64,000 nt of DNA from Fidelibacterota bacterium. Lineage in GTDB: Bacteria > Fidelibacterota > UBA8477 > JABMPR01. The translations under genes and the position numbers were made by a program. Of the stretch, positions 15,658-37,196 are shown in pieces. Numbering within the stretch: position 1 is the first letter of the stretch; each line of letters starts with the position of its first letter. The DNA lies in the NCBI GenBank assembly GCA_018673925.1, contig JABHBL010000056.1:69256-133255 (forward strand), given 5' to 3'. The notes beneath the pieces are model-generated. The model was not told the DNA's origin and searched no databases. It saw only the letters and a list, made by a program, of their open reading frames with translations.

Positions 15658-17307
15658 ATGACATATAACTCCTTTTCCCTCTCTGGAAGCATTGTTGATG
15701 TTTTAAATCAACGCATTTTCCCTGGAACCATTCATGTTGAAAATGGCAGAATCACGTCTGTCGCAGAAGAATCAGTTTCAGAAACACATCTTATACTTCC
15801 AGGACTCATCGATGCCCATATTCATATTGAAAGCTCCATGCTGGTGCCCACCGAATTTGCTCGTGCAGCAGTTGTTCATGGCACCGTGGCCACAGTTTCT
15901 GATCCACACGAAATAGCCAATGTTCTCGGGATGCGTGGAGTTGATTTCATGTTGTCCAATGCAGAGCAATCACCTTTTAAATTTCATTTCAGCGCACCTT
16001 CCTGCGTCCCAGCGACTCCCTTTGAAACGGCAGGTGCAGAGTTGTCCGCACCTGAAATAGAAACTCTCTTGCAACGACCAGATATTGTCAGTCTATCAGA
16101 AATGATGAATGTACCTGGAGTTTTGAATGACGCTGAGGATGTGAATGAGAAATTAAGACTCGCCCGCATTGCTGGAAAAGTCGTTGATGGACACGCACCG
16201 GGATTACGAGGTGAAGCGGTTAAGAAGTATGTTGAGGCCGGCATTACAACCGATCATGAATGTTTCAGCCTGGCGGAAGCTTTGGAAAAATTGTCCCTGG
16301 GTATGCAAGTGCAGATTCGGGAAGGATCCGCAGCTCGCAACCTGGATGATCTCATTCCCTTGCTTGATGAGCATTATAAGAATTGTATGCTTTGCAGCGA
16401 TGACAAGCATCCTGATGATCTGGCTGAAGGGCACATAAATGAGATGGTAAAACGAGCCATCGCCGCAGGAATTGATCCACTCAAGGTCTTATGGAGCGCT
16501 TCGGTTACACCGGTAAAAACATATAAACTGGATATTGGTCTCATGCAAACGGGTGATCCGGCAGACCTGATTCTTGTTGACGATTTTGATAATTTTCAGG
16601 TCAAAGCGACTTATATCAATGGTGAACTCATGGCTGAAAATGGCACAACAAAACTGAGTTCTCAGGTCGTTGAGCCAATAAATAAGTTTGAAGCAGCTCT
16701 CCAGACACCCCAGCTCTTTGGAATTAAATCAAGCCAGGACCAAGTACCTGTTATAGATGTTATTGATGGGCAATTGGTCACTAAGAAATATTCGTGGCAC
16801 CCAACATTAAACTCTGATGGCTTCATTGAGCCAAATATTGAGGAAGATATCCTTAAAATCGCCGTTTTAAATCGCTACTCCCTCTCGAAACCCGCTGTTG
16901 CCTTAATTCGAAATTTTGGATTAAAGGAGGGTGCCATTGCCTCATCCGTTGCCCATGATTCCCACAATATTGTTGCTGTAGGAACCTCGAATGAAGATCT
17001 GGCGAAAGCTATGAATCTTATTATCCAGAACCAGGGTGGTATCTCAGCGGTAACCAAGAAGACTGAACATGTCCTCCCCCTACCAGTCGCTGGGATTATG
17101 TCAGATGATGATGCTTTCAGGGTAGGTGTAAGCTATGGTGAAATGGATGACCTTGCCAAGGAGATGGGATCCCAATTGGGTGCTCCCTACATGACACTGT
17201 CCTTTATGGCACTTCTGGTGATTCCTGACATCAAACTCAGTGACAAGGGTCTTTTTGATGGCACAACATTCCAATTCATAGATGCATTTGAATCGAGTGT
17301 GGGATGA
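15658..17307 (+). CDS. ade: Adenine deaminase
   Basis: 549 aa. Amidohydrolase metal site LPGLIDAHIHIESSM. Length and architecture match Ade-type adenine deaminases. Confidence 0.9.
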   Translation: MTYNSFSLSGSIVDVLNQRIFPGTIHVENGRITSVAEESVSETHLILPGLIDAHIHIESSMLVPTEFARAAVVHGTVATVSDPHEIANVLGMRGVDFMLSNAEQSPFKFHFSAPSCVPATPFETAGAELSAPEIETLLQRPDIVSLSEMMNVPGVLNDAEDVNEKLRLARIAGKVVDGHAPGLRGEAVKKYVEAGITTDHECFSLAEALEKLSLGMQVQIREGSAARNLDDLIPLLDEHYKNCMLCSDDKHPDDLAEGHINEMVKRAIAAGIDPLKVLWSASVTPVKTYKLDIGLMQTGDPADLILVDDFDNFQVKATYINGELMAENGTTKLSSQVVEPINKFEAALQTPQLFGIKSSQDQVPVIDVIDGQLVTKKYSWHPTLNSDGFIEPNIEEDILKIAVLNRYSLSKPAVALIRNFGLKEGAIASSVAHDSHNIVAVGTSNEDLAKAMNLIIQNQGGISAVTKKTEHVLPLPVAGIMSDDDAFRVGVSYGEMDDLAKEMGSQLGAPYMTLSFMALLVIPDIKLSDKGLFDGTTFQFIDAFESSVG

Positions 17308-17317
17308 TAGATATGAT

Positions 17318-17350
17318 CTTTTTACAACGAATTTTACGAATGAGACGAAC
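17318..17350. repeat. Left inverted repeat flanking GxxExxY cassette 1 (three ACGAA pentamers at 9-nt period)
   Basis: CTTTTTACAACGAATTTTACGAATGAGACGAAC. Its reverse complement matches 17786-17819 at about 25 of 33 positions, including a perfect 13-mer TTTTACAACGAAT. Confidence 0.8.
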
Positions 17351-17379
17351 TGGGTTTTATAGATAACAGCCCAACTAAC

Positions 17380-17775
17380 ATGAAACCCATCTTATACAAA
17401 GAGCTAACAGATACCATCATCAAGATTGCTATTGAGGTTCAAAAGGAACTTGGCCTCGGCTTTTTCGAACGTGTCTATGAGAATGCCCTGATTATTGCCC
17501 TTCAAGAAGAAGGCTTGGTGGTCGATCAACAGAAACAATTTGATGTCTATTTCCGGGGTCACAACGTCGGTGTTTATATTGCGGATTTATTGGTAGAAGA
17601 GAAAATCATTCTTGAAATTAAGGCAGTTGATAATATTTCCAGGTCACACTATGCTCAACTGATTAATTACCTAAAAGCATCTGACAAAGAAGTTGGCTAT
17701 GTCATTAACTTTGGACGAATTCCACTCCAGTTCAAGCGCCTTGCCAAAACAAACCAAGCTGGTGAGGAGACTTAA
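17380..17775 (+). CDS. GxxExxY-family protein (PD-(D/E)XK nuclease-like fold)
   Basis: 131 aa. Name-giving motif GLGFFERVYENAL. D...E-x-K core (ADLLVEEKIILEIKA). Confidence 0.85.
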   Translation: MKPILYKELTDTIIKIAIEVQKELGLGFFERVYENALIIALQEEGLVVDQQKQFDVYFRGHNVGVYIADLLVEEKIILEIKAVDNISRSHYAQLINYLKASDKEVGYVINFGRIPLQFKRLAKTNQAGEET

Positions 17776-17785
17776 GCAATCATGT

Positions 17786-17819
17786 CTTTCGTTATTTTCG
17801 TCAGATTCGTTGTAAAAGA
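17786..17819. repeat. Right inverted repeat flanking GxxExxY cassette 1 (three TTCGT pentamers at 9-nt period)
   Basis: CTTTCGTTATTTTCGTCAGATTCGTTGTAAAAGA, the inverted partner of 17318-17350. Confidence 0.8.
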
Positions 17820-17864
17820 GAACGCTTTTCTTAAACTCAATTCGGAAAATGATAAATAAATAAT

Positions 17865-20129
17865 ATGTCGAAATCCACTCAGATAATTGGTGCCAGACTT
17901 AAACGCGATGATGCTCGTGGTAAGACCACAGGTGAAACCAAGTTTCTTACTGATATCAAAGTAGATAACATGCTGCATGCTGCCCCCGTATTTTCACAGG
18001 TAGCTTATGGCAAGCTCCTTGGGATTGATACTCGTGTCGCTGAAAATGACCCCGATTATATAGCTTTTTTCTCAGCAAAGGATATTCCTGGTGAAAATCA
18101 AGTCGGGGTGATTCTGGAAGACCAACCGCTAATGGCTGCTGATGTTGTTCGCTATGTTGGTGACAGTGTGGGCATTCTCATTGCCGAAACGGCTGAAGCA
18201 GCTCAACGACTGGCCAGGCTTGTCAGTGTAAACATTGATCCCTTTGATCCGGTTTTTTCCATTGATGAGAGTCGTAATGCTAAAGTAAACCTGCTCCATG
18301 AAACCAATTTGGCCTGCCAGCATCAAGTCAAGCGTGGAGACCCTGATAAAGCATTCGCTGAAGCAGACCATGTTATTGAAGCGAGATTTGAAACCCCCTT
18401 TCAAGAACACTATTATCTTGAGCCGCAAGCTTGCATTGCTCAGTGCAGCCCTGATGGTAGTATTGATATTTTGGGATCAATTCAGTGTCCCTTCTATGTT
18501 CAAAAAGCAGTTTCGAAAGCGTTGGCTATCCCCTTTTCAAAAATCCGGGTAGAGCAATCTCCTACAGGTGGTGCCTTCGGGGGTAAAGAAGATATTCCCT
18601 CAGAGACCTGCACTCGAGTAGCATTAGCAGCTCTGCTTCTCAAGCGATCCATTAAAATGGTATATGATCGAACCACTGATGTTCAACTTACCAGCAAGCG
18701 CCACCCCTTTCAAATGTACTACAAGGTGGGTGTATCAAAATCCGGAAAGTTACTGGCTGCAGAAATCAAGCTGGAAGAAAATGCAGGAGCCTACGCCACA
18801 TTGTCATCTGTGGTCTCTTATCGCTCGGCCATGCAGGCTATGGGGCCGTATGTTATAGACAACATCTCTGTAGAGTCTAAATCCTATTATACCAATCTGC
18901 CCCCTACTGGAGCTTTCCGGGGATTCGGCTCCCCCCAGGCTGCGTTTGGCCATGAACGTATGATGGATGTCATTGCCGAGAAGCTGAATATGGACCCCAT
19001 AGAGATACGTTTACAAAACATCTTGAAAGTCGACACATCAACGCTCACAGGTCATCACCTAAAAAGCAGTGTTGGGGCTGAAGAAACCCTGGTAACAGCG
19101 GCCAGTGCCTGTGATTGGTCAAATCGAAAATCAAACGATGATTCTCGTTGGAAAACTGGCTATGGGGTTTCTCTCATACATTATGGGAATTGTCTGGGTG
19201 CTGCTGGCTGGTTTATGGATGGCAGCGGCGTCAAGATCAAGATCCACCGTGATGGTTCCATCTCAGTCGCATTTGGTCTCATCGAAATGGGACAAGGAGC
19301 GCTCAGCGTCGTCCAGCAAATGACTGCGGAAGCCCTGGGAGTGGAGCCTTCGAGAATTACTGTTTTACCCACAGATACTGAACAGGTACCTGATAGTGGT
19401 CCTTCAGTCGCCAGCAGAAATGTAGTCATGACGGGAAACGCAATTCGGGATGCGGCGAGCAAATTACTACCCATCCTGAAAGAAGCTGCCGCTGAACTCA
19501 TGCAGTGCGATCTGAATGAAATCAATATCGAGTATGGGGCAGTAAGTAATATTCGGAATGGTGAAACGCTGAGTTTTGCGGAGCTCAGTAATTATCTCTA
19601 CTTGTCCAACCGCCCCATGGATGTCTTGGGCTGGTGGCATGTGCCAGAACTTGATTATGATGCAGTAAATGGAGTTGGTGAGGCCTACTTCACCTATTCT
19701 TATGCTACTCATATCGCTCGAGTCAATGTTGATACGCTCACTGGTCAGGTCAAGGTGGATAAAATTTGGGCTTCCCATGATGTGGGAAGAGCCATTAACC
19801 CTGCTGGCCTGGAGGCTCAAATTGAAGGAGGAACTGCCCAGGGAATTGGCTGGGCTTTAACAGAGCATTTCAAAGTTGAGGGAGGTAAAGTCTTAACTGA
19901 CAATCTCACTACCTATCTTTTACCAACAGCTCTTGATGTTGGTGCAATCGAATCAATCCTAGTGGAAGATCCTGAACCTGAGGGTCCCTGGGGTGCTAAA
20001 GGTATCGGTGAGCCAGCCATCATTCCAACAGCTGCAGCTATAACCAATGCTGTGAGTAATGCCTTGGGGATATCAGTTGCTCATATTCCCATAACGCCTG
20101 AATACATTTTAGAAATGGTAGGTGAATGA
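17865..20129 (+). CDS. Xanthine dehydrogenase/aldehyde oxidase family molybdopterin-binding large subunit
   Basis: 754 aa. Family motifs GGAFGGKE, FRGFGSPQ, GEPAIIPTAAAITNA. Its stop overlaps the start region of ssnA. Confidence 0.9.
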   Translation: MSKSTQIIGARLKRDDARGKTTGETKFLTDIKVDNMLHAAPVFSQVAYGKLLGIDTRVAENDPDYIAFFSAKDIPGENQVGVILEDQPLMAADVVRYVGDSVGILIAETAEAAQRLARLVSVNIDPFDPVFSIDESRNAKVNLLHETNLACQHQVKRGDPDKAFAEADHVIEARFETPFQEHYYLEPQACIAQCSPDGSIDILGSIQCPFYVQKAVSKALAIPFSKIRVEQSPTGGAFGGKEDIPSETCTRVALAALLLKRSIKMVYDRTTDVQLTSKRHPFQMYYKVGVSKSGKLLAAEIKLEENAGAYATLSSVVSYRSAMQAMGPYVIDNISVESKSYYTNLPPTGAFRGFGSPQAAFGHERMMDVIAEKLNMDPIEIRLQNILKVDTSTLTGHHLKSSVGAEETLVTAASACDWSNRKSNDDSRWKTGYGVSLIHYGNCLGAAGWFMDGSGVKIKIHRDGSISVAFGLIEMGQGALSVVQQMTAEALGVEPSRITVLPTDTEQVPDSGPSVASRNVVMTGNAIRDAASKLLPILKEAAAELMQCDLNEINIEYGAVSNIRNGETLSFAELSNYLYLSNRPMDVLGWWHVPELDYDAVNGVGEAYFTYSYATHIARVNVDTLTGQVKVDKIWASHDVGRAINPAGLEAQIEGGTAQGIGWALTEHFKVEGGKVLTDNLTTYLLPTALDVGAIESILVEDPEPEGPWGAKGIGEPAIIPTAAAITNAVSNALGISVAHIPITPEYILEMVGE

Positions 20130-20130
20130 G

Positions 20131-21441
20131 ATGGAACAGCTTTTATTACACAATTTGCACATCATTGATCCTTTTGGCGAACGAGAATTTCTGGAACATG
20201 CTTCCATTCTCATTGAAGATGAAGTCATCAAGTTTGTCGGTCGAGGTTTCTCACATGTTGGCTTTGAGGGACAAATATTGGACATGGAGGGTAAAATAGT
20301 TTTACCTGGAATTATCAATGCCCACACTCACCTATACTCAACACTGGCCATGGGAATGCACCCACCTCAAAAATCACCAAAAAATTTCGTTGAACATCTC
20401 GAAGAGGTCTGGTGGAAATTAGATCGTGGACTGGATAAGGCATCTGTGCTGGCCTCCTTTGAAGCCGGGCTCATGGATTGCATTCAGAATGGTACCACAA
20501 CCATTATTGATCATCACGCCAGTCCAAACCTTGTTGAGGGTTCTTTAGATCTACTGGCAAAGGTAGCGGAATCGTTCGGCATGAATATCAGTCTTTGTTT
20601 TGAGAGCTCAGACAGAAACGGTGAGGCGAACTTTAAGGATGAACTCTCAGAAAATATACGCGCCATAAGAAAATACACCTCAAATCCTTACATCTCACCC
20701 CGCCTCGGACTGCACGCTTCTTTTACGCTTTCAGATGAATCTTTAGAAAGAGTGAGCAAAGCTCTGAAGGATTTCCCTGATTGCGGTATTCATATCCATG
20801 TTGCTGAGGACCTTGCTGACGAAAAGGATGCCCAGGCCAGAGGATATCGTTCAGTAATTCAGCGGTTGGATGATTTTAATCTACTCTCCAATCAATCTCT
20901 GATTATTCATGGCATCTTTATGACACGCGAGGATCGACATATCTTGCTAAAACATGGCTGCAAGCTGGTTCATAATCCGACATCAAATGCAAATAATCAG
21001 GTTGGCGTACTGGAGACTGAGATTATCGAATCCATGGGTCCAGGTTTGGGAACCGATGGCATGCAGAACAACATGCTCAAAGAAGCCAAAGAAGGTACAC
21101 TGGTACGAGCCGCCACAGAAAGTCCATCAGTTGACTATCTGGAGCTCCTCTTTCAGAATAATCCCGATATTGCTGTAAAAATATTCGGAAAATTAATAGG
21201 ACACATTGAGGAAGAAGCCCAGGCTGATCTGGTATTTTATGATTATGATTCTCGAACAGAGTTAAATGCAGACAATTATGGTGCTCACCTGCTCTTTGGA
21301 CTGGGGAAACCTTCAGATGTCATGACTCGGGGAAGATTTCGTCTGCGTAACCAACAACTGGTAGGAATGGATGAGTCCCGTATTCGTGAGAATGCTCGCA
21401 AGCAAAGCAAACGACTTTGGGCGGCAATGAAAGTACTCTAA
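20131..21441 (+). CDS. ssnA: SsnA-type putative aminohydrolase (selenium-metabolism-linked amidohydrolase family)
   Basis: Amidohydrolase HxH (NAHTHLYS). Blocks VWWKLDRGLD and TTIIDHHASP match E. coli SsnA as I recall it. ATG at 20131 is preferred (AGGTGA RBS) over the track's GTG at 20122. Confidence 0.85.
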   Translation: MEQLLLHNLHIIDPFGEREFLEHASILIEDEVIKFVGRGFSHVGFEGQILDMEGKIVLPGIINAHTHLYSTLAMGMHPPQKSPKNFVEHLEEVWWKLDRGLDKASVLASFEAGLMDCIQNGTTTIIDHHASPNLVEGSLDLLAKVAESFGMNISLCFESSDRNGEANFKDELSENIRAIRKYTSNPYISPRLGLHASFTLSDESLERVSKALKDFPDCGIHIHVAEDLADEKDAQARGYRSVIQRLDDFNLLSNQSLIIHGIFMTREDRHILLKHGCKLVHNPTSNANNQVGVLETEIIESMGPGLGTDGMQNNMLKEAKEGTLVRAATESPSVDYLELLFQNNPDIAVKIFGKLIGHIEEEAQADLVFYDYDSRTELNADNYGAHLLFGLGKPSDVMTRGRFRLRNQQLVGMDESRIRENARKQSKRLWAAMKVL

Positions 21442-22713: not shown

Positions 22714-22722
22714 GGGATTGTC

Positions 22723-22792
22723 TTCACCCTTCGAGAACCTCAGGGAGCCAATCCGTGTGTGTCTTGCTGAGCCTGTCGAAGTATGCGCACAC
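22723..22792. repeat. Intergenic palindromic repeat cluster R1 (unit A, a partial inverted unit B, and a full unit B)
   Basis: Unit A TTCACCCTTCGAGAAC (22723-22738). Partial inverted unit B CTTCGAGAACCTCAG (22729-22743). Unit B GTGTCTTGCTGAGCCTGTCGAAG (22759-22781). Related copies lie at 23978-24000, 25545-25567 and 25606-25628. Confidence 0.75.
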
Positions 22793-22806
22793 TTATTAGG
22801 AGCAAC

Positions 22807-28236: not shown

Positions 28237-28507
28237 GACGACTAACCGGAAAAAATGGTCTGAAATCAGAGAAAAGGGAAAGTGGAATTATATACTCAAT
28301 TATGGAGTCCTCAGGTTTGGTATATCAACCTGGACCATAATGATGGTATACTTTTGGGTTTTTCAACCCATCGAAGAACGCCTGATATTCACTGTTGTAT
28401 CGCTCATAACTTTCCCCCTGGCAGGCTTAGCATGGGGAAGATGGATGTGGTTTTATCTGGAAAAACTTTACTCAAAATTACCCGACTCCAATGAGGATCA
28501 GAAATAA
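28229..28507 (+). CDS. Small two-helix membrane protein (92 aa), function unknown
   Basis: ATG overlaps the FAD-subunit stop by 8 nt, and its stop is 3 nt before the ygfK ATG. Two hydrophobic helices (ILNYGVLRFGISTWTIMMVYFWVF; LIFTVVSLITFPLAGLAWGRWMWFYL). Confidence 0.55.
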   Translation: MFKTTNRKKWSEIREKGKWNYILNYGVLRFGISTWTIMMVYFWVFQPIEERLIFTVVSLITFPLAGLAWGRWMWFYLEKLYSKLPDSNEDQK

Positions 28508-28510
28508 TTT

Positions 28511-31500
28511 ATGAATGATAAACTCTACCCTGTTTCCATTCAACATCTGGTCAAGTGGATGTTATCAGAGCTCAATGGTGACCAGCTGTTTGGTATCCAA
28601 AAAGACCTTTTCTTCACGCCTGACGAAAGCGACCCTTTCCGCATGCAACGTTATGGACAGATGCTGGAAACCCCTATCGGTGTGGCTGCAGGACCACATA
28701 CTCAGCTTTCCCAAAACATCATTGCTGCTTGGTTGTGTGGAGCCCGCTATATGGAGCTCAAGACAGTTCAGACTCTAGATGAGCTGGAGGTCAGCAAGCC
28801 CTGTATTGACATGCAGGATGAAGGTTATAACTGTGAGTGGTCCCAGGAACTAAAGCTAAAACAATCCCTGGATGAGTATCTCAATGCCTGGATAGCCGTT
28901 CATATCCTGAAGGATTATCTCGGGTGGAATTCTAATCAGGGAGTCGGTGTCATATTTAACATGAGTGTTGGTTATGATCTCGCTGGCATCATGAGACCCA
29001 ATGTCCAACAGTTCATGGACCGCATGGAAAACAGCCAGGATTTACTGAATGAGAAGTTGAATCTCATCGAATCCATTTACCCAAACATTAAAAACCTGAA
29101 TATCCCTGCGCGCATGACGGACAATATCACCCTATCCACCATGCACGGCTGTCCCCCTGATGAGATTGAGCGTATTGCCACCTATCTCATCAAAGAACGA
29201 AAATATCATACAGCAGTAAAATTGAACCCAACATTACTGGGTCCAGAACACCTGCGACAAATATTGAACCACGATCTGGGCTATGAAGCTTCCGTTGTAC
29301 CAGACGAGGCTTTTGAGCACGATTTAAAATATCCAGACGCTCTGAATCTCATTAATAATCTTCAAACTCATGCTGATAAAACAGGTGTAGAATTTGGACT
29401 AAAGTTGACCAATACTCTAGAAGTTCAAAATCACCGACCTGTTTTTCCTGAAAATGAAACCATGATGTATCTCAGTGGTCGGGCGCTGCATCCCATCAGT
29501 ATTAATCTCGCAGCAAAACTGCAGAAAGACTTTAATGGAAAATTAGATCTATCCTTTTCTGCTGGCGCAGATGCATTCAATGTAGCTGATATTCTGGAAT
29601 GCAATCTTCGTCCAGTTACAACCTGTACTGATGTTTTAAAGCCAGGCGGTTATACACGACTGGGTCAGTATCTGGACAATTTGCAACAAGCCATGCAGGA
29701 TGCAGAAGCCGAGAACCTGGGTAAGTTCATACTGGGAAGTGATGATGAGTCTCAAGACATCAATAAGTCCGGCTTAAACAAGCTGATGGAATATGCTAAA
29801 CGAGTGATTCACAATCCACACTATCACAAACATAGCCACCATTTTGATTCTATTAAAACCGCACGTCATTTAGGGACTTTCGACTGTATTTCGGCTCCAT
29901 GTGTTGATGCCTGTGCTGCAGATCAAAATATCCCCGAATATCTCTACCATACTTCACAGGGTGATTTTGACAAAGCTTTCGAAGCAATTCAAGATACCAA
30001 CCCACTTCCTGGCGTCACAGGAAATGTCTGTGACCATTTGTGTCAATTGAAATGTACCAGAAACAATTATGATTCACCCCTCTTGATCCGTGAGATCAAA
30101 CGCTTCGTAACAGAACATGAAATCACAAAAATTAATACTCCCAATGTCTCAGGACATGGACACGAGGTGACAGTGATTGGAGCAGGACCAGCTGGATTAT
30201 CCTGTGCCTATTTCTTGGCCAAACAAGGTATCCATGTTGATGTCTACGAGAGCAAATCATTCGTAGGGGGCATGGTCTCGGGTGCTATTCCAGAATTCAG
30301 GTTAAGTGATGAAACCATTAATCTTGATATTGATGTTCTAAAGAATTTAGGGGTTAATTTTCATTTTGATTGCCCTGTAGGTCCTGATCTTTATAAGCAA
30401 ATTCAAGAATCGAGTGATGATGTATTTATAGGTGTTGGTGCTCAACGCGCCTTGACGCTTGGAGTTGAAGGGGAGAACCTCTCTGGCGTCCTGAACCCTC
30501 TGGAATTTCTCGCTGAAGTCAGGTTGGGAGCTCGTCCTGACCTGGGTCAGAACATTGCTATCATAGGTGGTGGCAACACTGCTATGGATGCAGCCCGCAC
30601 ATCGCTTCGATTGGCAGGTGAATCTGCTACCGTCAGCGTTATCTATCGGCGAACCATGTCAGAGATGCCAGCTGATATTGATGAAATCGAAGCTGCGCTG
30701 GCGGAAGGCATCACCTTCCATGAACTCATTGCACCCTTAAGTTTTGAAGGGGATGGCCAGGTCAAACAGATTCATTGCCAGAAAATGGAATTGGGTGAGC
30801 CAGATGCCAGCGGTCGCCGCCGTCCCGTACCTCTGGATGGTGAATTCCTAAAATTTCCTGTTGATACTGTGATTCCGGCAATTGGACAGGCCATTAGTGT
30901 GGATTTTATTGGTGAAGATGATCTTCAGGTGAACTATGCAACCTGTACAACCGCTATCCCCCATGTTTATGCCGGCGGCGATGCTGTGCGGGGTGCCTCC
31001 AGCGTCATCAATGCTATTGGAGATGGGCAAATCGCAGCCCGACACATACTCCACAGTATTGAAGCATCTCCAGCACGACCTAAAAATGCTCCTCGTCTTA
31101 TATCCATAGATGATTTAAAGAAAAAAGCTGCGAACAGAGAGTATGGAATTACGCCCCCTCTGGCAGATCACGACAAGTCCAAAGAGTTTCCTGAGGTTCA
31201 TCGCACCCTCACCAGGGCAGAAGCCATTGAAGAAGCCAGTCGCTGTCTATTGTGTGATGACTATTGCAGCGTCTGTGTTGGAGTCTGTCCCAATCTCGCT
31301 AATCTCACCTATATGGTGGAACCTGTGAAATACGATGTTCATGAAATAGAAGTCATTGGGAAAGAACAAATCACCAAAAACACCGGATATCTTGAGCTCA
31401 ATCAGGAACCACAGATCTTGAACATTGGTGATTTCTGCAATGAGTGCGGTAATTGCACCACCTTTTGCCCAACTGCCGGGGATCCCTATCTTGATAAACC

Positions 31501-31795
31501 GCGCTTACATCTGTCCAAACAAAGCTACCATGAATCAAACACAGGTTACCTGATTTCTGATAACTCCATTCTAATGAAAAACGAAAACTATGAGGCTTCA
31601 GTTATCCACCAAAATGGAGACTACCTTTTCTCGTCTCCCCTGGTTCAGGTCAGTTTTGATGGCGCGTCAAAAAAGCTTAACTTCTTCAAATCAGAAAATG
31701 GAAAAGTAAGTACCCGAGAGCCTCTTGAAATGATTGTACTCTATGAAAATCTTAAAGACCACCCTATACTAGTTGGACACGAATCTCACGAATGA
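28511..31795 (+). CDS. ygfK: YgfK-type large Fe-S flavoprotein ('putative selenate reductase subunit YgfK' family)
   Basis: 1094 aa, collinear with E. coli YgfK as recalled (GPHTQL.QNI, ELKTVQ, STMHGCPP.EIE, VKLNPTLLG, DIPEY, VIGAGPAGL, GGGNTAMD, C-terminal CxxCxxxCxxCxxxCP ferredoxin motifs). Confidence 0.92.
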   Translation: MNDKLYPVSIQHLVKWMLSELNGDQLFGIQKDLFFTPDESDPFRMQRYGQMLETPIGVAAGPHTQLSQNIIAAWLCGARYMELKTVQTLDELEVSKPCIDMQDEGYNCEWSQELKLKQSLDEYLNAWIAVHILKDYLGWNSNQGVGVIFNMSVGYDLAGIMRPNVQQFMDRMENSQDLLNEKLNLIESIYPNIKNLNIPARMTDNITLSTMHGCPPDEIERIATYLIKERKYHTAVKLNPTLLGPEHLRQILNHDLGYEASVVPDEAFEHDLKYPDALNLINNLQTHADKTGVEFGLKLTNTLEVQNHRPVFPENETMMYLSGRALHPISINLAAKLQKDFNGKLDLSFSAGADAFNVADILECNLRPVTTCTDVLKPGGYTRLGQYLDNLQQAMQDAEAENLGKFILGSDDESQDINKSGLNKLMEYAKRVIHNPHYHKHSHHFDSIKTARHLGTFDCISAPCVDACAADQNIPEYLYHTSQGDFDKAFEAIQDTNPLPGVTGNVCDHLCQLKCTRNNYDSPLLIREIKRFVTEHEITKINTPNVSGHGHEVTVIGAGPAGLSCAYFLAKQGIHVDVYESKSFVGGMVSGAIPEFRLSDETINLDIDVLKNLGVNFHFDCPVGPDLYKQIQESSDDVFIGVGAQRALTLGVEGENLSGVLNPLEFLAEVRLGARPDLGQNIAIIGGGNTAMDAARTSLRLAGESATVSVIYRRTMSEMPADIDEIEAALAEGITFHELIAPLSFEGDGQVKQIHCQKMELGEPDASGRRRPVPLDGEFLKFPVDTVIPAIGQAISVDFIGEDDLQVNYATCTTAIPHVYAGGDAVRGASSVINAIGDGQIAARHILHSIEASPARPKNAPRLISIDDLKKKAANREYGITPPLADHDKSKEFPEVHRTLTRAEAIEEASRCLLCDDYCSVCVGVCPNLANLTYMVEPVKYDVHEIEVIGKEQITKNTGYLELNQEPQILNIGDFCNECGNCTTFCPTAGDPYLDKPRLHLSKQSYHESNTGYLISDNSILMKNENYEASVIHQNGDYLFSSPLVQVSFDGASKKLNFFKSENGKVSTREPLEMIVLYENLKDHPILVGHESHE
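31777..31794. repeat. Left inverted repeat of GxxExxY cassette 2 (overlaps the last codons of ygfK)
   Basis: ACACGAATCTCACGAATG with ACGAA pentamers 9 nt apart. Pairs imperfectly with 32247-32265. It encodes the C-terminal HESHE of the YgfK ORF. Confidence 0.65.
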
Positions 31796-31847
31796 ACACA
31801 AATAGTCACAAAAAATACGAAATGTATAGAAAGAATCTGACTGGTGA

Positions 31848-32219
31848 ATGACTGAGATAATATATAAGGAATTATCATTTCAAATTGCGGGCTTAGCAAT
31901 GGAAGTCCATAAACAATTGGGATATGGTTTTCTGGAGAAGGTCAATGAAAATGCACTTCGAATCTTACTTTGTAAAAATGGAATACGAGTCAAAACTCAA
32001 CATCCAATAACTGTACGGTTTGAAGGTGAAATTGTTGGACAATATTACGCTGACATGCTTGTTGATGATAAAATAATTTTAGAGTTGAAAGTTGCTGAAA
32101 GAATTAGTGCTGCCCATAAAGCACAGGCGCTAAATTACCTGAAAGGTACTGGTCTAAAACTAGCAATAATACTCAATTTTGGTCCAAAGAAACTGGAAAG
32201 CCACCGTGTGGTCAACTGA
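31848..32219 (+). CDS. GxxExxY-family protein, second copy (motif variant GxxExxN)
   Basis: 123 aa, aligns along its length with the 17380 copy (roughly 35-40% identical by eye). GYGFLEKVNENAL. ADMLVDDKIILELKV. Confidence 0.8.
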   Translation: MTEIIYKELSFQIAGLAMEVHKQLGYGFLEKVNENALRILLCKNGIRVKTQHPITVRFEGEIVGQYYADMLVDDKIILELKVAERISAAHKAQALNYLKGTGLKLAIILNFGPKKLESHRVVN

Positions 32220-32246
32220 AACCCCAATGATTAAAAACCTAAGAAG

Positions 32247-32265
32247 CACTCGTGTAAATTCGTGT
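32247..32265. repeat. Right inverted repeat of GxxExxY cassette 2
   Basis: CACTCGTGTAAATTCGTGT. Its reverse complement ACACGAATTTACACGAGTG matches 31777-31794 with one indel. Confidence 0.65.
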
Positions 32266-32293
32266 GTTATTTTTGCAATTGGTGTCTATTAAA

Positions 32294-33688
32294 ATGTCTA
32301 CAATTCTTATTAAAAATGCTCTCGCTGTTGCCACCATGAATGATTCTCAAGAAGAATTTTCTGGAGGGCATATCCTAATCGAAAATGGTGTGATAAAATC
32401 ATTGGGACCGGATACCCCTGACATTCTAGCTGATAAAACAATCGATGCCACGGGGATGGTGATTACACCTGGTTTCATAAACACCCATCACCACCTCTAT
32501 CAAACCCTTACTCGTAACATTCCTTTAATGCAGGATCAGCCGCTCTTCTCATGGTTATCCAATCACTATGAAGTCTGGCGAGAACTTACCACTGAGGCTG
32601 TTGCGGTGAGCACCAAAACCGGGCTGTTGGAGCTGATGAAAACTGGTGTGACTACCAGCTCAGATCATCTATATCTATTTCCATCTAAAGCCAGCCCGGA
32701 ATTGATCGACACAGAGATCGAAGCTGCAAAAGAACTGGGGATTCGATTTCAACCCACCCGGGGCTCCATGTCCCTTGGTAAATCAAAGGGTGGACTACCA
32801 CCTGATGATGTGGTTCAGACAGAAGATGCCATTCAAAAAGATACAGAAAGATTGCTGGCAAAATATCATGAGGACTCGGAAGGTGCCATGACCCGCATTT
32901 CTCTGGCTCCATGTTCTCCTTTTTCTGTGACAACAAAATTGATGAAACAAACGGCTGCTTTTGCCAGGGGCAACAACCTTCAAATTCATACTCATCTTGC
33001 TGAAACTTTGGATGAAGAGACTTTTTGTCTGGAGAGTTTTGGATTACGACCAGTCGGTCTCATGCAGGAGCTAAATTGGCTTACCTCAAATTCATGGTAT
33101 GCTCATTCCGTGCATTTGAATGATGATGAAATCAGGCTGATGGGTGAAAATCAAGTGGGGATTTCCCATTGTCCATCGTCTAACATGCGCCTGGGCTCGG
33201 GTATTGCCAGGATTCATGAACTTCTGGAGGCTGGAGTCAATGTAAGTCTGGGTGTCGATGGTAGCGCTTCAAACGATTCTGGCGACATGCTGCTGGAAAT
33301 GCGCAACGCCATGCTCATTTCACGGTTGAGAGAGCAAGAGTTATGGCTAACCGCTCGAGATGTTCTTCGTATGGCTACGCGGGGAGGTGCTGCCGCTTTA
33401 GGTCGCAATGATATCGGAGAACTCACGGTAGGGAAGCAGGCTGATCTGGCATTATTCAGCATGGATAACATCGGGCAGGCTGGTAGCCAGTCAGACCCCC
33501 TCGCTGCACTGGTCTTTACCACACGTCAACGTCCAGTGGATTATCTTATCATTGATGGTAAAATCGTCATCAAGCGGGGTACTTCTGAAACAGATGAATC
33601 CACGCTCGTATCAAAACATAATAAGCTTGCCGCTGAGATGCTCCATCGAGCCGAACAGCGTGTCAAAATAGATTTTTCAAGTCATTAA
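32294..33688 (+). CDS. 8-oxoguanine deaminase-like amidohydrolase (guanine/8-oxoguanine/isoxanthopterin deaminase group)
   Basis: Blocks NTHHHLYQTLTR, RGSMSLG...GGLPPD, LAPCSPFSV, HTHLAETLDEE.FC, HCPSSNMRLGSGI, GVDGSASND match 8-oxoguanine deaminase as I recall it. ATG at 32294 is preferred because the track's GTG at 32264 lies inside the repeat. Confidence 0.8.
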   Translation: MSTILIKNALAVATMNDSQEEFSGGHILIENGVIKSLGPDTPDILADKTIDATGMVITPGFINTHHHLYQTLTRNIPLMQDQPLFSWLSNHYEVWRELTTEAVAVSTKTGLLELMKTGVTTSSDHLYLFPSKASPELIDTEIEAAKELGIRFQPTRGSMSLGKSKGGLPPDDVVQTEDAIQKDTERLLAKYHEDSEGAMTRISLAPCSPFSVTTKLMKQTAAFARGNNLQIHTHLAETLDEETFCLESFGLRPVGLMQELNWLTSNSWYAHSVHLNDDEIRLMGENQVGISHCPSSNMRLGSGIARIHELLEAGVNVSLGVDGSASNDSGDMLLEMRNAMLISRLREQELWLTARDVLRMATRGGAAALGRNDIGELTVGKQADLALFSMDNIGQAGSQSDPLAALVFTTRQRPVDYLIIDGKIVIKRGTSETDESTLVSKHNKLAAEMLHRAEQRVKIDFSSH

Positions 33689-33703
33689 CTAGTAGGTCAA
33701 ATC

Positions 33704-34438
33704 ATGTGGTCTTCAATTGAACAAATAATCAAACCGGATTCTCTTAGTGAAGCTTCTGTGTTGCTCAAGGAATCCGGCTCAGTCCTTTTTGCTGGGGGTA
33801 CTTATCTCGTCTCTCAAAAAGACACCGATATAAACACCCTCCTTGACATTAATCATTTGTTAAGCAATCAGATCACAAGGCATGGAGATGAATTTCACTT
33901 AGATGCAGGGTGTACGCTTCAGGAAATTGCCAATTTTGATGATGCGCATCTCAAGAGCGCTATTCTTTCAGCCTGTCCTTCAAAAAACATCCGCAATCAG
34001 CGAACCATTGGTGGTGAAATTGCCAGATCAAGAACCGACTCCGATCTCCTGGTTTTCTTATTCGCTTCCAGGACACAATTATTTCTAAACGAGTCTGAGG
34101 CACCAGTTGAATTGTCTCACTGGAATGGTGAAGGTATTATTGAGAAGATGATCATTCCTGCTCTTGATGTAAAACTTGAACGGGTTGCGCTCTTAGATTC
34201 TGCACCTGCCTTTGTCATAGTTGGTATGAATGAGCAAGCTGATTCCACCGCTATTTGCATTGGAGGTAAATCATCTAAAATCTTGTTCATAGAAACTCGC
34301 TCTGAACCTGATGAGACTGAGATTCGGAAATTTATGGATGATGTGGAATCCTGCTTCAGTGAAGATCATCTAGGGACTCCAGCCTACAAAAGACATCTGG
34401 TTTCTTCATTGCTCCAGGAAATGGCGGTGGTGAAATGA
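33704..34438 (+). CDS. ygfM: YgfM-like FAD-binding subunit
   Basis: 244 aa. FAGGTYL and RNQRTIGGEIA motifs. ATGA overlap with the next gene. Confidence 0.8.
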   Translation: MWSSIEQIIKPDSLSEASVLLKESGSVLFAGGTYLVSQKDTDINTLLDINHLLSNQITRHGDEFHLDAGCTLQEIANFDDAHLKSAILSACPSKNIRNQRTIGGEIARSRTDSDLLVFLFASRTQLFLNESEAPVELSHWNGEGIIEKMIIPALDVKLERVALLDSAPAFVIVGMNEQADSTAICIGGKSSKILFIETRSEPDETEIRKFMDDVESCFSEDHLGTPAYKRHLVSSLLQEMAVVK

Positions 34439-34911
34439 GAGTACAATTCGAGCTGAATGGTCATCTCATTGAGGCAGACCCAGCACCTGGATCCACATTG
34501 ATGGAATATTTGAGGCATGAAGAGCTTCACAGTGTAAAACATGGTTGCGACCATGGAGAATGCGGTGCGTGTACGGTTCTCGTGGACAATAGAAGTATGA
34601 ATGCCTGTCTGATTCTCATGCATACGGTGAATGGACTAAAAATAGAAACCCTTGAAAGCTTTTCAACTCATGAGGAGTTGCATCCACTTCAAAATGATTT
34701 CCTGCATGAGGGTGCTGCACAATGCGGCTTTTGTACACCAGGAATGATTCTCTCCCTGGAAGCTCTGGATCGTGAAGGTGGTGAGATAGAGGAAACCAAT
34801 GTTCGTGATGCCCTCAATGGAAATCTATGTCGATGTACTGGCTATGTTAAGCCTGTAAAGGCTGCACTCACTACCTTACAAAAGTCCAGTAGGTCTGGAG
34901 GTGAGTCATGA
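34435..34911 (+). CDS. (2Fe-2S)-binding small subunit (second set)
   Basis: GCDHGECGACT and QCGFCTPG...CRCTGY motifs. ATGA overlaps on both sides. Confidence 0.92.
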   Translation: MRVQFELNGHLIEADPAPGSTLMEYLRHEELHSVKHGCDHGECGACTVLVDNRSMNACLILMHTVNGLKIETLESFSTHEELHPLQNDFLHEGAAQCGFCTPGMILSLEALDREGGEIEETNVRDALNGNLCRCTGYVKPVKAALTTLQKSSRSGGES

Positions 34912-37196
34912 AAGTGATTGGCAAAGATACTCAGCGTGTCGATGGTCAGGCTCTGGTCAAAGGGAATCCAGTTTTTGCAGATGATATCAAGCTCAACAAT
35001 CTACTTCATGTTAAAATTTTGCACAGTCCTGTCGCCCACGCAAAAATTATCAGCATTGATGTATCGAAAGCCCAGACTTTGGAAGGTGTTGAATCCGTTT
35101 TCACGCATAAGGATTTCAATCCTCACTACTACACAACTGCTGGCCAGGGCTATCCTGAACCAGGTCCACGCGATATGCGCATTCTTGACTCAAAGGTGCG
35201 TTTTGTAGGTGATCGTGTAGCTTTTGTGGCCGCAGAGACACTGGAAATTGCTGAACAGGCTCTAAGTCTTATAGAAGTAGAGTATGAAGAGCTACCCTGT
35301 CTGTTTGATATGGAAGAGGCTATGACCTCTGATGTTATAATTCACTCAAATCCTGATAAGACCGGACTCCATGATGCCGCACATAATGTGGCTGCTCATC
35401 TGGATGCTGAAATTGGAGATGTAGATAAAACTTTGGAGTCATCAAAGTTTGTTTTCGAAGGCACTTACAGCACACCCTTTGTTCAAATGGCGTCTATTGA
35501 ACCGCATATTTCTCTTACCTGGCTGGATGAGAACAATCGTCTAGTGATCAGAACCTCCACCCAGGTTCCTTTTCATGTCCGTCGCATTGTTGCAGAAGTA
35601 ATGGGCATTCCAGTCAGTAAAATTCGTGTCATCAAGCCACGTCTTGGTGGCGGATTTGGCGGAAAGCAGGAAATTCTCAATGAAGAGTTGGTAGCTGCGG
35701 TCACATTAAAGACTGGCAGACCTGCCCGTATTGAATACACCAGAGCAGAGGAATTATTTGCAGCTCGATTGAGACACCCCGAACTGGTTTCCTTCCGGCT
35801 AGGATTCGATGAAAATCAAATGTTGACCGCCATAGATCTAAACATTCTTGAAAACTGCGGGGCTTATGGACCCCATGCGCTGACCGTCATGTCCGTGACT
35901 GCTCAAAAGGCATTAAGCATGTATAAGGCGCCCAGCATTAGGGTCAATGGAGATGGTGTATATACAAACCTCCCCATTGGTGGAGCCTACCGTGGATATG
36001 GGGCTCCCCAGGCTTTTTTCCCTTTGGAAAGTCTCATGGATGAAGCTGCTGAAACCATGGGAATCGATCCCATTGAATTACGCCTGAAGAATGTTTTTAA
36101 GGTCGGTGATGATATTCCAATTGCCAAAATCCTGGGTGAGGGTCGTGAAGGCTTTCCCATGGTGCTCTATAGTACAGAGATCGAAGCTTGCCTGGAAGAG
36201 GGCCGCATTCTCAGCGATTGGGAGCGTCTCAGATCCGAACCTGGAAATGGTCGTTATCGACGTGGTATTGGTGTGGCCGTAGCAGGCCAGGGATCTGGAA
36301 TTCCAGGAATTGATATGGGTGCTGCCTTTATCAAGATGAATGAAGATGCCAGTTTTAACCTCCAGGTTGGCGCTACGGATCTGGGGACGGGTTCTGATAC
36401 CGCCTTGGCTCAAATAGCAGCCGAAGTCCTGGGCGTTTCAGTCGATAAAATTATTGTCTATTCCTCTGATACGGATATGACTCCCTTTGATACCGGTGCC
36501 TATGCTTCCAGCACAACATATATCTCAGGATCAGCCGTTAAAAAAGCTGCAGAAAATTGCAAAACGATGATTCTTGAACAGGGCAGGTTGCTGTTAGGGA
36601 ATGAAACCGCGGAAATAGATGGGACCTTTGTAAAAGATGGGAATGGGCAGAGCATTTCATTTGAAGATATTTGTATCAAGAGCTTCTATACCGAAGAGCA
36701 AAAGCAAATCATGGGAACGGCGTCCCATCTGAGCTATGACTCACCACCACCTTTCAATGCTACCTTCGCTGAAGTTGAGGTTGATACGCTCACCGGGACT
36801 GTTCGAGTTATAAAAATTGTGTCGGTGACAGATGCTGGTCAGATTATCAATCCCAAGATGGCCGAGGGTCAGATTGAAGGGGGTATTCCTCAGGCCCTGG
36901 GTATGGCTCTGTCAGAATTTATGCCTTTTGATGATAAGGGTGGTCCAATCAATCTGGACTTCAATAGCTATCACATTTACACTGCCAGGGATATGCCTGA
37001 GCTGATTGTTCGTTTCGCCGATTCTCATGAACCAACAGGTCCCTATGGCGCTAAGGCAGTAGCTGAAATTCCAATAAATGCGCCAGCACCTGCGGTAACG
37101 AATGCTGTCTATAATGCAGTCGGAGTTCGAATAAAACATCTACCAATCAGACCAGAGGAAATTTTGGGGGCTATAAGCAGAAATCGGGCTAATTGA
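34908..37196 (+). CDS. XdhD-like molybdopterin-binding large subunit (second XDH-family enzyme)
   Basis: 762 aa. GGGFGGKQE, YRGYGAPQ, GAKAVAEIPINAPAPAVTNA. Adjacent to YgfM-like and Fe-S subunits, as in the E. coli ygfM-xdhD arrangement. Confidence 0.9.
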   Translation: MKVIGKDTQRVDGQALVKGNPVFADDIKLNNLLHVKILHSPVAHAKIISIDVSKAQTLEGVESVFTHKDFNPHYYTTAGQGYPEPGPRDMRILDSKVRFVGDRVAFVAAETLEIAEQALSLIEVEYEELPCLFDMEEAMTSDVIIHSNPDKTGLHDAAHNVAAHLDAEIGDVDKTLESSKFVFEGTYSTPFVQMASIEPHISLTWLDENNRLVIRTSTQVPFHVRRIVAEVMGIPVSKIRVIKPRLGGGFGGKQEILNEELVAAVTLKTGRPARIEYTRAEELFAARLRHPELVSFRLGFDENQMLTAIDLNILENCGAYGPHALTVMSVTAQKALSMYKAPSIRVNGDGVYTNLPIGGAYRGYGAPQAFFPLESLMDEAAETMGIDPIELRLKNVFKVGDDIPIAKILGEGREGFPMVLYSTEIEACLEEGRILSDWERLRSEPGNGRYRRGIGVAVAGQGSGIPGIDMGAAFIKMNEDASFNLQVGATDLGTGSDTALAQIAAEVLGVSVDKIIVYSSDTDMTPFDTGAYASSTTYISGSAVKKAAENCKTMILEQGRLLLGNETAEIDGTFVKDGNGQSISFEDICIKSFYTEEQKQIMGTASHLSYDSPPPFNATFAEVEVDTLTGTVRVIKIVSVTDAGQIINPKMAEGQIEGGIPQALGMALSEFMPFDDKGGPINLDFNSYHIYTARDMPELIVRFADSHEPTGPYGAKAVAEIPINAPAPAVTNAVYNAVGVRIKHLPIRPEEILGAISRNRAN

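Follow-up and report, generated by a model that had tools for sequence, protein, structure and literature searches.

The 64-kb stretch of Fidelibacterota contig JABHBL010000056.1 analysed here (the window) carries 17 consecutive forward-strand open reading frames (ORFs) spanning positions 15658-37196 (21.5 kb). This cluster likely equips a marine bacterium, related to Marinimicrobia/Neomarinimicrobiota metagenome-assembled genomes (MAGs), with a variant of the anaerobic reductive urate (2,8-dioxopurine) pathway. The system itself has been known since 2025; what is new is a variant with two pyridoxal phosphate (PLP)-dependent enzymes, PLP1 and PLP2, in a lineage and habitat outside the published surveys. 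An earlier annotation of this DNA (the original prediction) had treated the two PLP enzymes as incidental, whereas the pair is the cluster's most distinctive conserved feature.

Relation to the known urate pathway

The pathway was solved in 2025 by Liu et al. (bioRxiv 10.1101/2025.04.24.650524, later Nat Microbiol) and Li et al. (bioRxiv 10.1101/2025.05.19.654654). In the published route, urate is produced by xanthine dehydrogenase (XDH), and its 6-oxo group is removed to give 2,8-dioxopurine by XdhD-YgfM in E. coli or by XdhAC, the urate/2,8-dioxopurine oxidoreductase 'DOPDH', in C. sporogenes. The reductase YgfK ('DOPOR') then reduces 2,8-dioxopurine, SsnA opens the pyrimidine ring to give ureidomethylhydantoin and some 5-ureidodihydrouracil, and HyuA opens the second ring to 2,3-diureidopropionate. 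YgeW uses phosphate to release carbamoyl phosphate, which yields ATP through YqeA, the other ureido group is hydrolysed by YgeY, and YgeX converts 2,3-diaminopropionate to pyruvate and ammonia (Li et al. 2025; Liu et al. 2025). Enzymes are now assigned to all steps of the canonical pathway, and the statement in the original prediction that several steps were biochemically unassigned is outdated; the link that it drew from this gene neighbourhood to anaerobic urate degradation is backed by the same biochemical papers.

We assigned families using NCBIfam hidden Markov models (HMMs) with curated cut-offs, together with Pfam, on the 50 main ORFs of at least 110 amino acids (those not nested inside a longer ORF); scores are quoted in bits against the cut-off. 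All proteins of the E. coli K-12 xdhA-to-uacT region were compared with the whole window by tblastn. The tightly spaced, co-directional genes of the original prediction are all present where it had placed them, on the forward strand and in the order that it gave, and neighbouring ORFs overlap by 4-8 nt or are separated by 2-138 nt. Its list was correct in what it named and had omitted two small GxxExxY / PD-(D/E)XK_3 ORFs. The GC content of the cluster (0.43-0.47) is the same as that of its flanks, with no compositional break, and 'island' therefore means a gene cluster here, horizontal transfer not being demonstrable.

Ade, YgeY, YgeW, YgfK and OxoGD (an 8-oxoguanine-deaminase family protein) pass their curated cut-offs, which supports the assignment of the cluster to the known pathway type. 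Among the families that the original prediction had proposed for an HMM check, YgeY, YgeW and YgfK score above the cut-off, and SsnA, the YgfM-like and the XdhD-like proteins below it; of the four (SsnA, YgeY, YgeW and YgfK) whose low scores it had named as refuting, SsnA alone falls short, so that this refuting condition applies in part. SsnA is nonetheless the top family for the SsnA-like protein, which is the reciprocal best match of E. coli SsnA (34% identity, 229 bits); YgeY, YgeW, YgfK, YgfM and XdhD likewise have reciprocal best matches in the E. coli cluster, with identities of 70% for YgeY, 64% for YgeW and 38% over 1065 amino acids (aa) for YgfK. HMM cut-offs, reciprocal BLAST and the 2025 biochemistry thus agree on the predicted homology of this purine-catabolism cluster with the E. 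coli ygeW-xdhD neighbourhood. Translation of ssnA probably starts at ATG 20131 rather than at GTG 20122; its start overlaps the stop of the preceding molybdenum (Mo) subunit gene, Mo1, to which it is translationally coupled.

With the E. coli ygeW-xdhD cluster (Li et al. 2025) the window has in common YgfK, YgeW and YgeY, and it has an SsnA-like protein, a YgfM-like FAD subunit and an XdhD-like Mo subunit. Both clusters are arranged locally as ygfK-amidohydrolase-FAD-(FeS)Mo, and a second, XdhABC-like XDH is likewise present. The window differs in lacking HyuA, YgeX, YqeA, YqeB, YqeC, MocA, YgeV and a purine permease; its XdhD counterpart is split into FeS and Mo genes, OxoGD replaces GuaD, Ade is built in and PLP1/PLP2 are present. 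All of its genes lie on one strand in one apparent operon, whereas the E. coli pathway genes are split over several. The C. sporogenes 2,8-dioxopurine pathway (Liu et al. 2025) follows the same logic, from XDH through DOPDH, DOPOR (YgfK), SsnA and YgeW/YgeY to pyruvate, and carbamate kinase can be unlinked there, as in Collinsella and in the window. However, the C. sporogenes DOPDH is an FeS-Mo fusion that has no FAD subunit and is not NAD(P)H-linked, whereas the window has an XdhD-like enzyme with an FAD subunit; C. sporogenes also has YgeX and HyuA, both absent from the window. That non-orthologous enzyme swaps are common within the pathway is shown by the Clostridioides difficile variant (Li et al. 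2025), but the swaps differ: PydA-like UacX stands there for YgfK and D-aminoacylase-like UacY for YgeW/YqeA, whereas in the window PLP1/PLP2 appear to stand for YgeX, and HyuA is missing.

In the flow that we propose, every step of which is predicted from homology, Ade would convert adenine to hypoxanthine, and a three-subunit XDH (Mo1/FeS1/FAD1) would take hypoxanthine and xanthine to urate. 8-Oxoguanine, possibly also guanine, would be fed in by OxoGD through deamination. Mo2/FeS2/FAD2, a split XdhD-YgfM, would strip the 6-oxo group from urate to give 2,8-dioxopurine, which YgfK would reduce and the pyrimidine ring of which SsnA would open. The second ring would be opened to 2,3-diureidopropionate by a cyclic amidohydrolase not encoded in the window. 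One ureido group would then leave as carbamoyl phosphate (YgeW) and the other would be hydrolysed (YgeY), leaving 2,3-diaminopropionate, or a precursor with one ureido group, for PLP1/PLP2, not YgeX, to turn into pyruvate and ammonia. The genes for carbamate kinase and purine transporters, the selenium-cofactor genes yqeB and yqeC, and mocA would lie elsewhere in the genome.

Table 1. Features of the cluster, with predicted roles; scores are bits against the curated cut-off.
Feature	Positions	Strand	Predicted identity or role	Family evidence or remark
Upstream region	15573-15657	+	Candidate promoter/operator, conserved, ~85 nt	Directly upstream of the Ade start
Ade	15658-17307	+	Adenine deaminase (adenine to hypoxanthine)	TIGR01178 619 > 472
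Small ORF	17380-17775	+	GxxExxY / PD-(D/E)XK_3 protein; inserted cassette, not a pathway enzyme	TIGR04256 133 > 35; PF13366
Mo1	17865-20129	+	Molybdopterin subunit, probable xanthine dehydrogenase catalytic subunit	Best HMM pucD 483 < 784
SsnA	20131-21441	+	SsnA-like amidohydrolase, putatively opening the pyrimidine ring of reduced 2,8-dioxopurine	NF005540 409 < 444; TIGR03314 391 < 455
YgeY	21481-22713	+	M20 hydrolase, predicted to hydrolyse one ureido group	TIGR03526 687 > 321
YgeW	22783-23961	+	Knotted carbamoyltransferase, predicted phosphorolysis of the other ureido group to carbamoyl phosphate	NF005538 654 > 453
PLP1	24066-25529	+	487-aa fold-type-II PLP enzyme, cysteine-synthase/CBS-like core with N- and C-terminal extensions	PF00291 only
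PLP2	25668-26909	+	Threonine-synthase-like PLP enzyme with N-terminal Cys-rich ribbon	TIGR00260 200 > 167
FeS1	26912-27406	+	[2Fe-2S] subunit, Mo1 partner	XdhC_XDHase 180 < 217
FAD1	27403-28236	+	XdhB-type FAD subunit, Mo1 partner	PF00941 + PF03450; XdhB_XDHase 180 < 310
Hydrophobic ORF	28229-28507	+	92 aa	Overlaps the FAD1 stop; ends 3 nt before ygfK
YgfK	28511-31795	+	Putative 2,8-dioxopurine reductase (DOPOR)	TIGR03315 944 > 835
Second small ORF	31848-32219	+	GxxExxY / PD-(D/E)XK_3 protein; inserted cassette	TIGR04256 125 > 35
OxoGD	32264-33688	+	8-Oxoguanine-deaminase family amidohydrolase	NF006055 609 > 532
FAD2	33704-34438	+	Short YgfM-like FAD subunit, Mo2 partner	N-terminal PF00941 only; TIGR03312 53 < 241
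FeS2	34435-34911	+	[2Fe-2S] subunit	Aligns to XdhD residues 1-138, the counterpart N-terminal domain, and to XdhC; below the XdhC-like cut-off
Mo2	34908-37196	+	XdhD-like molybdopterin subunit, probable urate/2,8-dioxopurine oxidoreductase (DOPDH)	XdhA model 706 < 780; XdhD TIGR03313 585 < 1102

A PLP2 scan of one genome per species returned five contigs (L001-L005) in which the genes and their order match those of the window, at 78-94% identity; three are labelled Candidatus Neomarinimicrobiota and two Lentisphaeria. Our taxonomic reading rests on relatives at these identities, exact-sequence look-ups of the window's SsnA and YgeW proteins having given no record. The named closest homologues of PLP1 are mostly from Candidatus Marinimicrobia, a group that NCBI places within the FCB group under the phylum name Fidelibacterota. 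Syntenic copies that are more remote (51-89% identity) were found in L013, L015, L017, L020, L022, L024, L027, L029 and L031. In all, at least 10 independent contigs, mostly labelled Marinimicrobia, preserve the synteny, with amino-acid identities of 51-94%, and the cluster is therefore a conserved unit of a lineage, not a chance juxtaposition. The names of some relatives' MAGs suggest the Black Sea and Saanich Inlet water columns as sources.

The syntenic islands of L013 (GCA_964454335.1) and L027/L029 have the same backbone as the window, Mo1-SsnA-...-YgeW-PLP1-PLP2-FeS1-FAD1-YgfK-OxoGD-FAD2-FeS2-Mo2. Where the window has YgeY, however, L013 and L027 have a carbamate kinase (TIGR00746 360 > 358 for L013; BLAST gives 42% identity between this gene and that of L027), with an aspartate carbamoyltransferase-like transferase also present there in L013. 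Among the relatives, the second ureido group thus appears to be hydrolysed in some and, in others, phosphorolysed to gain ATP.

Some observations weigh against the pathway assignment. As encoded in the window the pathway is incomplete, a hydantoinase or dihydropyrimidinase being missing, and there is no carbamate kinase. SsnA, Mo1, Mo2, FAD1, FAD2, FeS1 and FeS2 all lie under their curated equivalog cut-offs, and the selenium-related set of YqeB, YqeC and SelD is not found within the 64 kb. By tblastn with the E. coli queries, the window contains no orthologue of HyuA, YgeX, YqeA, YqeB, YqeC, MocA, XanQ, GhxQ or UacT, and the HMM and Pfam scans of the main ORFs found no SelD, in line with the original prediction, which had placed ygeX, hyuA, yqeA, yqeB, yqeC and selD outside it.

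The PLP enzyme pair and the second ring opening

PLP1 and PLP2 adjoin ygeY-ygeW in the window. PLP1 scores far under the CysK and cystathionine beta-synthase (CBS) cut-offs, and its helical N- and C-terminal extensions are family-specific. The top Foldseek matches of its AlphaFold model (pLDDT 78.6) were CBS, O-acetylserine sulfhydrylases, beta-cyanoalanine synthase and O-ureidoserine synthase, all of which act at C-beta of 3-substituted alanines, and the model places PLP1 in this beta-substituted-alanine-lyase/synthase fold. An exhaustive search at E <= 1e-30 returned 289 representative clusters, in which full-length members reach down to ~32% identity; this argues that PLP1 is a discrete family.

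The solved threonine synthases (ThrCs), four in number, are invariant at T88, S155, R160 and N188 (T. thermophilus numbering), which we take to be the residues binding the phosphate of O-phosphohomoserine; PLP2 has A, G, L and D there. Across 47 PLP2 homologues the changes at T88, R160 and N188 recur: the T88 position reads STGNA in 45 of the 47, Arg is found at the R160 position in none of the 46 in which the motif was located, and the N188 position reads PVGDG in 33 of 34 with that motif located. With four ThrC-invariant positions changed, three of them family-wide, PLP2 is very unlikely to be a threonine synthase. Neither protein resembles YgeX closely: PLP2 scores 63 against a cut-off of 276 on the diaminopropionate ammonia-lyase model NF006058, with 27% identity to YgeX across 203 aa, and PLP1 gave no match, leaving the window without YgeX.

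A metagenome scan with the PLP1 alignment yielded 80 loci with PLP1 homologues at 66-91% identity. One or more other pathway genes stand beside PLP1 in 55 of these loci (36 of the 46 that are at least 8 kb long), PLP2 adjoins it in 45 of the 80, and none of the 80 has a YgeX orthologue. In L042 the order is HyuA-like, SsnA, YgfK, YgeY, YgeW, PLP1, PLP2, two Mo enzymes and a YqeB-like gene, with the pair at the place of ygeX; in L033 the pair is followed by a DOPDH-type enzyme of the TIGR03311 family, SsnA and a bona fide D-hydantoinase (566 > 393). Minimal modules of a ygeW-like gene, a ygeY-like gene and PLP1 occur in L062, L079 and L082. From context and fold we infer that in many environmental clusters YgeX is replaced by a non-orthologous enzyme, PLP1, usually together with PLP2. 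Li et al. used PF00291 to colour 'YgeX' in their neighbourhood analysis (10.1101/2025.05.19.654654); since both PLP1 and PLP2 carry this domain, that analysis would not separate them from YgeX.

The pair could instead be ordinary amino-acid biosynthesis genes, one cysteine-synthase-like and one for threonine synthase, that sit in the operon while YgeX is encoded elsewhere. PLP2 does pass the generic thrC model, the PLP1 homologues of the closed genomes L009 and L012 lie outside any purine cluster, and 10 of the 46 PLP1 loci of at least 8 kb have no pathway neighbour; the first two of these points also count against a role for the pair in urate breakdown. However, the altered ThrC positions and their recurrence among the homologues, the low CysK and CBS scores and distinctive termini of PLP1, and the complete lack of YgeX orthologues among the 80 loci all argue the other way, as does the occurrence of the pair in at least four cluster architectures, always beside ygeW, ygeY, ygfK or Mo genes. 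We regard the biosynthetic explanation as improbable and retain the replacement of YgeX. In L009, a retron-type reverse transcriptase gene (RVT_1; 5647-6708) lies between an XdhC_CoxI gene and a group of ornithine carbamoyltransferase, RmuC and PLP1 genes.

The opening of the second ring has no evident enzyme in the window. The HyuA search gave just a 65-aa N-terminal similarity to OxoGD, and no scanned window ORF matched the D-hydantoinase/allantoinase family. Neither the 15 kb upstream of the island nor the 27 kb downstream encodes a cyclic amidohydrolase, and none is visible in any relative of the window type. Of the 80 PLP1 loci, 9 have HyuA-like genes and 6 have OxoGD, and none has both. 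The simplest account is an unlinked hydantoinase or dihydropyrimidinase.

Two proteins of the cluster were considered as stand-ins. Ade was rejected, as it passes its own equivalog cut-off and an unrelated PF00962 deaminase fills its slot in L027. OxoGD is an unlikely candidate: it is ~50% identical over its full length (434 bits) to the solved P. aeruginosa 8-oxoguanine deaminase 7ww2, and the alignment shows the HHH, HTHLAE and DGSASND metal and catalytic motifs all retained. The 8-oxoguanine deaminase subfamily carries out amidine deamination, not amide ring opening. For this reason we keep OxoGD as an entry deaminase, likely converting 8-oxoguanine (possibly guanine) to urate (or xanthine).

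A further possibility is that the lower half of the pathway is chemically different, with no hydantoinase step and with the OxoGD-type amidohydrolase and/or PLP1/PLP2 acting on other intermediates; for instance, a PLP-dependent enzyme might release urea from 3-ureidoalanine by beta-elimination, and YgeY would then not be needed. The mutual exclusion of HyuA-like and OxoGD genes fits such a scheme, as do the position of OxoGD at ssnA's place in the E. coli order ygfK-ssnA-ygfM-xdhD, the lack of YgeY in L027 and L013, which have both PLP1 and PLP2, and the O-ureidoserine synthase among the Foldseek matches of PLP1. Yet the exclusion tracks lineage and may just reflect shared ancestry, OxoGD keeps the motifs of the solved deaminase that it resembles, PLP1/PLP2 also occur in clusters with HyuA-like genes and YgeY (L042, L033), and the E. 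coli pathway genes are likewise spread over several operons. We consider this different chemistry quite unlikely beside an unlinked ring-opening enzyme. Slightly less doubtful, though still unlikely, is the proposal that the Marinimicrobia-type cluster represents a distinct, hydantoinase-free lower branch of the reductive urate pathway in which PLP1/PLP2 perform chemistry foreign to the E. coli and Clostridium pathways; they might directly eliminate urea from a beta-ureido alanine, or ammonia from a beta-amino alanine, of defined stereochemistry in a PLP-dependent reaction, or might act as a racemase and a lyase.

Two molybdoenzyme complexes and selenium

The cluster encodes two XDH-family enzymes, as the original prediction had it, Mo1/FeS1/FAD1 and Mo2/FeS2/FAD2. 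The separation of Mo1 from FeS1/FAD1 by five genes, which it had also remarked on, recurs with the same spacing in every relative examined.

By tblastn, Mo2 matches E. coli XdhD (495 bits) slightly better than XdhA (458 bits). It is not an XdhD-type fusion: its Fe-S domain is a gene of its own (FeS2), whereas E. coli XdhD is fused FeS and Mo. Four features are common to Mo2 and XdhD and not found in XdhA or Mo1, namely an LGEG insertion holding a residue aligned with XdhD Glu606, which has been proposed to orient urate (Li et al. 2025, 10.1101/2025.05.19.654654), an SGIP(G/D)-ID segment with an identical 4-residue deletion, a Tyr at the position of bovine residue 1078, and a catalytic Glu that is flanked as A/S-E-I rather than G-E-P. 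FAD2 and E. coli YgfM have 33% identity over 133 aa, the genes FAD2-FeS2-Mo2 run colinear to ygfM-xdhD, and the order ygfK-amidohydrolase-FAD-FeS-Mo parallels E. coli ygfK-ssnA-ygfM-xdhD. Mo2/FeS2/FAD2 thus probably works like XdhD-YgfM, though it lies outside the curated models.

The best single solved match of Mo1 is R. capsulatus XdhB (329 bits), and Mo1 retains the equivalents of Glu232/802, Arg310/880, Phe914 and Glu730/1261 (R. capsulatus / bovine numbering); its presumed partner FeS1 is 41% identical to E. coli XdhC. The XdhD-type features of Mo2, taken together with the XDH residues and partners of Mo1, lead us to favour, with a fair degree of confidence, Mo2/FeS2/FAD2 as the enzyme acting on urate/2,8-dioxopurine and, as the xanthine dehydrogenase, Mo1/FeS1/FAD1. 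In the PLP1-containing cluster L042, the second Mo subunit (16134-19376) is fused to an XdhB-type FAD domain, giving a protein of 1081 aa.

The roles of the two complexes could be reversed, with Mo1 as the urate/2,8-dioxopurine enzyme and Mo2/FeS2/FAD2 as an E. coli XdhA-type xanthine dehydrogenase, and the assignment that we favour has no anchor in a characterised close relative. Several points speak for the exchange and so tell against our assignment. The best single HMM for Mo2 is the XdhA model (XdhA_XDHase 706, cut-off 780). On TIGR03311, the Firmicute DOPDH-type model, Mo1 outscores Mo2 (434 vs 335), and Mo1 has Gly/Ala at the bovine Phe1009 position of canonical XDHs; the DOPDH signature reported for C. 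sporogenes is F1009V / A1078T (Liu et al. 2025, 10.1101/2025.04.24.650524), so that the Phe1009 equivalent is gone in both. The bona fide TIGR03311 protein of L033 (883 > 830) carries this published signature, Val and Thr; from it and from the ~840 aa length of C. sporogenes DOPDH we infer that the latter is of TIGR03311 type. Finally, the Mo1 stop overlaps the ssnA start, and the ssnA-adjacent Mo subunits of HyuA-type clusters match Mo1 best.

Against such an exchange, Mo1 is just 31% identical to the TIGR03311 protein and has Val, not Thr or Ser, at position 1078, three indel or residue signatures including Glu606 are common to Mo2 and XdhD and absent in XdhA, FAD2 is YgfM-like, not XdhB-like, and the gene order from ygfK to Mo2 parallels that of E. 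coli. A reversal seems unlikely to us on balance, and we keep Mo2 as the putative DOPDH.

The C. sporogenes DOPDH and XDH need SelD, every strain with a uric acid gene cluster in the library of Liu et al. has YqeBC and SelD, and no sequence signature separates selenium-dependent from sulfur-dependent enzymes (Liu et al. 2025, 10.1101/2025.04.24.650524). In contrast to the window, the L027/L029 island has an XdhC-like gene, YqeB (TIGR03309 247 > 220) and YqeC (TIGR03172 133 > 73) divergently upstream, and the L013 island has YqeC (117 > 73) and a MocA-like gene in that position.

The original prediction had noted a selenocysteine (Sec)-decoding signal some 15 kb from the cluster, and we found it, ~15.9 kb from the island end: an in-frame TGA (53099-53097, reverse strand), through which the redoxin ORF 52491-53069 continues upstream, giving the motif W-U-G-N-C, with a 7-bp hairpin that starts 13 nt downstream of the TGA. 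The window's organism thus appears to decode Sec. Sec decoding needs selenophosphate synthetase, and a Sec-type redoxin accordingly implies selenophosphate synthesis. The redoxin-domain protein (52491-53300, reverse strand) has a C-terminal type IX secretion system sorting domain (Por_Secre_tail) and is probably a secreted or outer-surface thioredoxin-fold selenoprotein.

An ordinary sulfido-Mo cofactor, with no selenium dependence, would suit the 64 kb lacking yqeB, yqeC and selD, the plain XdhC-type chaperones of some related clusters (L010, L027) and the want of a distinguishing signature noted by Liu et al. Set against this are YqeB and YqeC genes scoring above the cut-off directly beside the syntenic islands L027/L029 and L013, the universal co-occurrence of YqeBC and SelD with the cluster in the library of Liu et al., and the Sec-type redoxin of the window. 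Judging from the indirect evidence of the relatives' YqeB/YqeC and the Sec codon, we think it probable, perhaps likely, that the molybdoenzymes are selenium-dependent, and the sulfido-Mo alternative doubtful.

Accessory genes, flanks and wider meaning

The adenine and guanine/8-oxoguanine entry deaminases that the original prediction saw as built into the cluster are supported by the score of Ade, by the similarity of OxoGD to a solved enzyme and by the exchange in L027, where a PF00962 adenosine/adenine deaminase unrelated to Ade takes its slot. A 30-nt inverted repeat (17320-17349 / 17788-17817, 80% complementary) brackets the first GxxExxY ORF, and in the YgfK|OxoGD slot, where the window has the second, L013 has a 23S_rRNA_IVP gene. 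In a survey of the window, L001-L005, L010, L013, L015, L038 and L051, GxxExxY / PD-(D/E)XK_3 genes occupied varying slots of the syntenic operons (Ade|Mo1, FeS1|FAD1, YgfK|OxoGD and YgfK|PLP1). These genes look like mobile, intervening-sequence-like cassettes within an mRNA. The small hydrophobic ORF, translationally coupled between FAD1 and ygfK, matched no family in the NCBIfam and Pfam scans; among L001-L005 it has a homologue in L001 and L004 only, the closest relatives, and the FAD1-ygfK gap of L003 (26 nt) is too short for it.

The region directly upstream of Ade is conserved in the window, L002, L004, L005 and L015, and more distal sequence diverges. A structured RNA leader was rejected for this region, as there is no consensus fold and no covariation; conserved without an RNA fold, it probably acts as DNA, in a promoter or operator. 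Scanning the entire window against Rfam gave no match to a riboswitch or to any other RNA family. Promoter-like and terminator-like hits were close to shuffled sequence (37 vs 36.5 and 25 vs 16.6, respectively), and no internal transcription signals can be claimed from them.

The HMM and Pfam scans of the main ORFs revealed no purine-related genes in the flanks, which encode radical SAM, GNAT, Rieske-GltB-like, pirin, Tag, DinB, ClC channel, pta-ackA, GlnII, PBP1c and ABC exporter proteins. Downstream of the island, at a distance of 9 kb, is the pta-ackA pair (46362-48566; phosphotransacetylase 351 > 310, acetate kinase 481 > 293); the two genes suit a fermentative use of pyruvate and are not linked to the cluster. 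Tag, DNA-3-methyladenine glycosylase I, is encoded on the forward strand 137 nt downstream of Mo2, with DinB and a DNA-alkylation-repair protein nearby (37334-39035, 44734-45456), a loose grouping of base-damage genes beside an 8-oxoguanine-deaminase cluster. On the strand opposite to the island, 10302-13412 encodes a 539-aa protein that joins a Rieske [2Fe-2S] domain to a glutamate-synthase FMN domain, and after it a glyoxalase-fold protein and a pirin.

We found no report in the literature of this pathway in Marinimicrobia/SAR406, or of marine variants, and the phylum is not listed in either published pathway survey (Li et al. 2025; Liu et al. 2025). Li et al. used SsnA (TIGR03314 / IPR017700) as their marker (10.1101/2025.05.19.654654), and Liu et al. 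defined a cluster by at least four of seven proteins above identity cut-offs to the C. sporogenes proteins (10.1101/2025.04.24.650524). Judged by the E. coli identities of YgfK, SsnA, YgeW and YgeY given above, which suggest where it would fall, the island could lie below the latter criterion. Both surveys would probably miss it, because its SsnA is below the IPR017700/TIGR03314 cut-off and it has no HyuA and no YgeX.

The pathway in Marinimicrobia-type MAGs would extend anaerobic urate/purine fermentation to pelagic, probably low-oxygen, marine bacteria, and it nominates two uncharacterised PLP families as terminal pathway enzymes in many environmental clusters. If the cluster does represent a distinct lower branch, PLP1 and PLP2 would be two new enzyme families, with a part in purine-nitrogen recycling in oxygen-poor ocean water.

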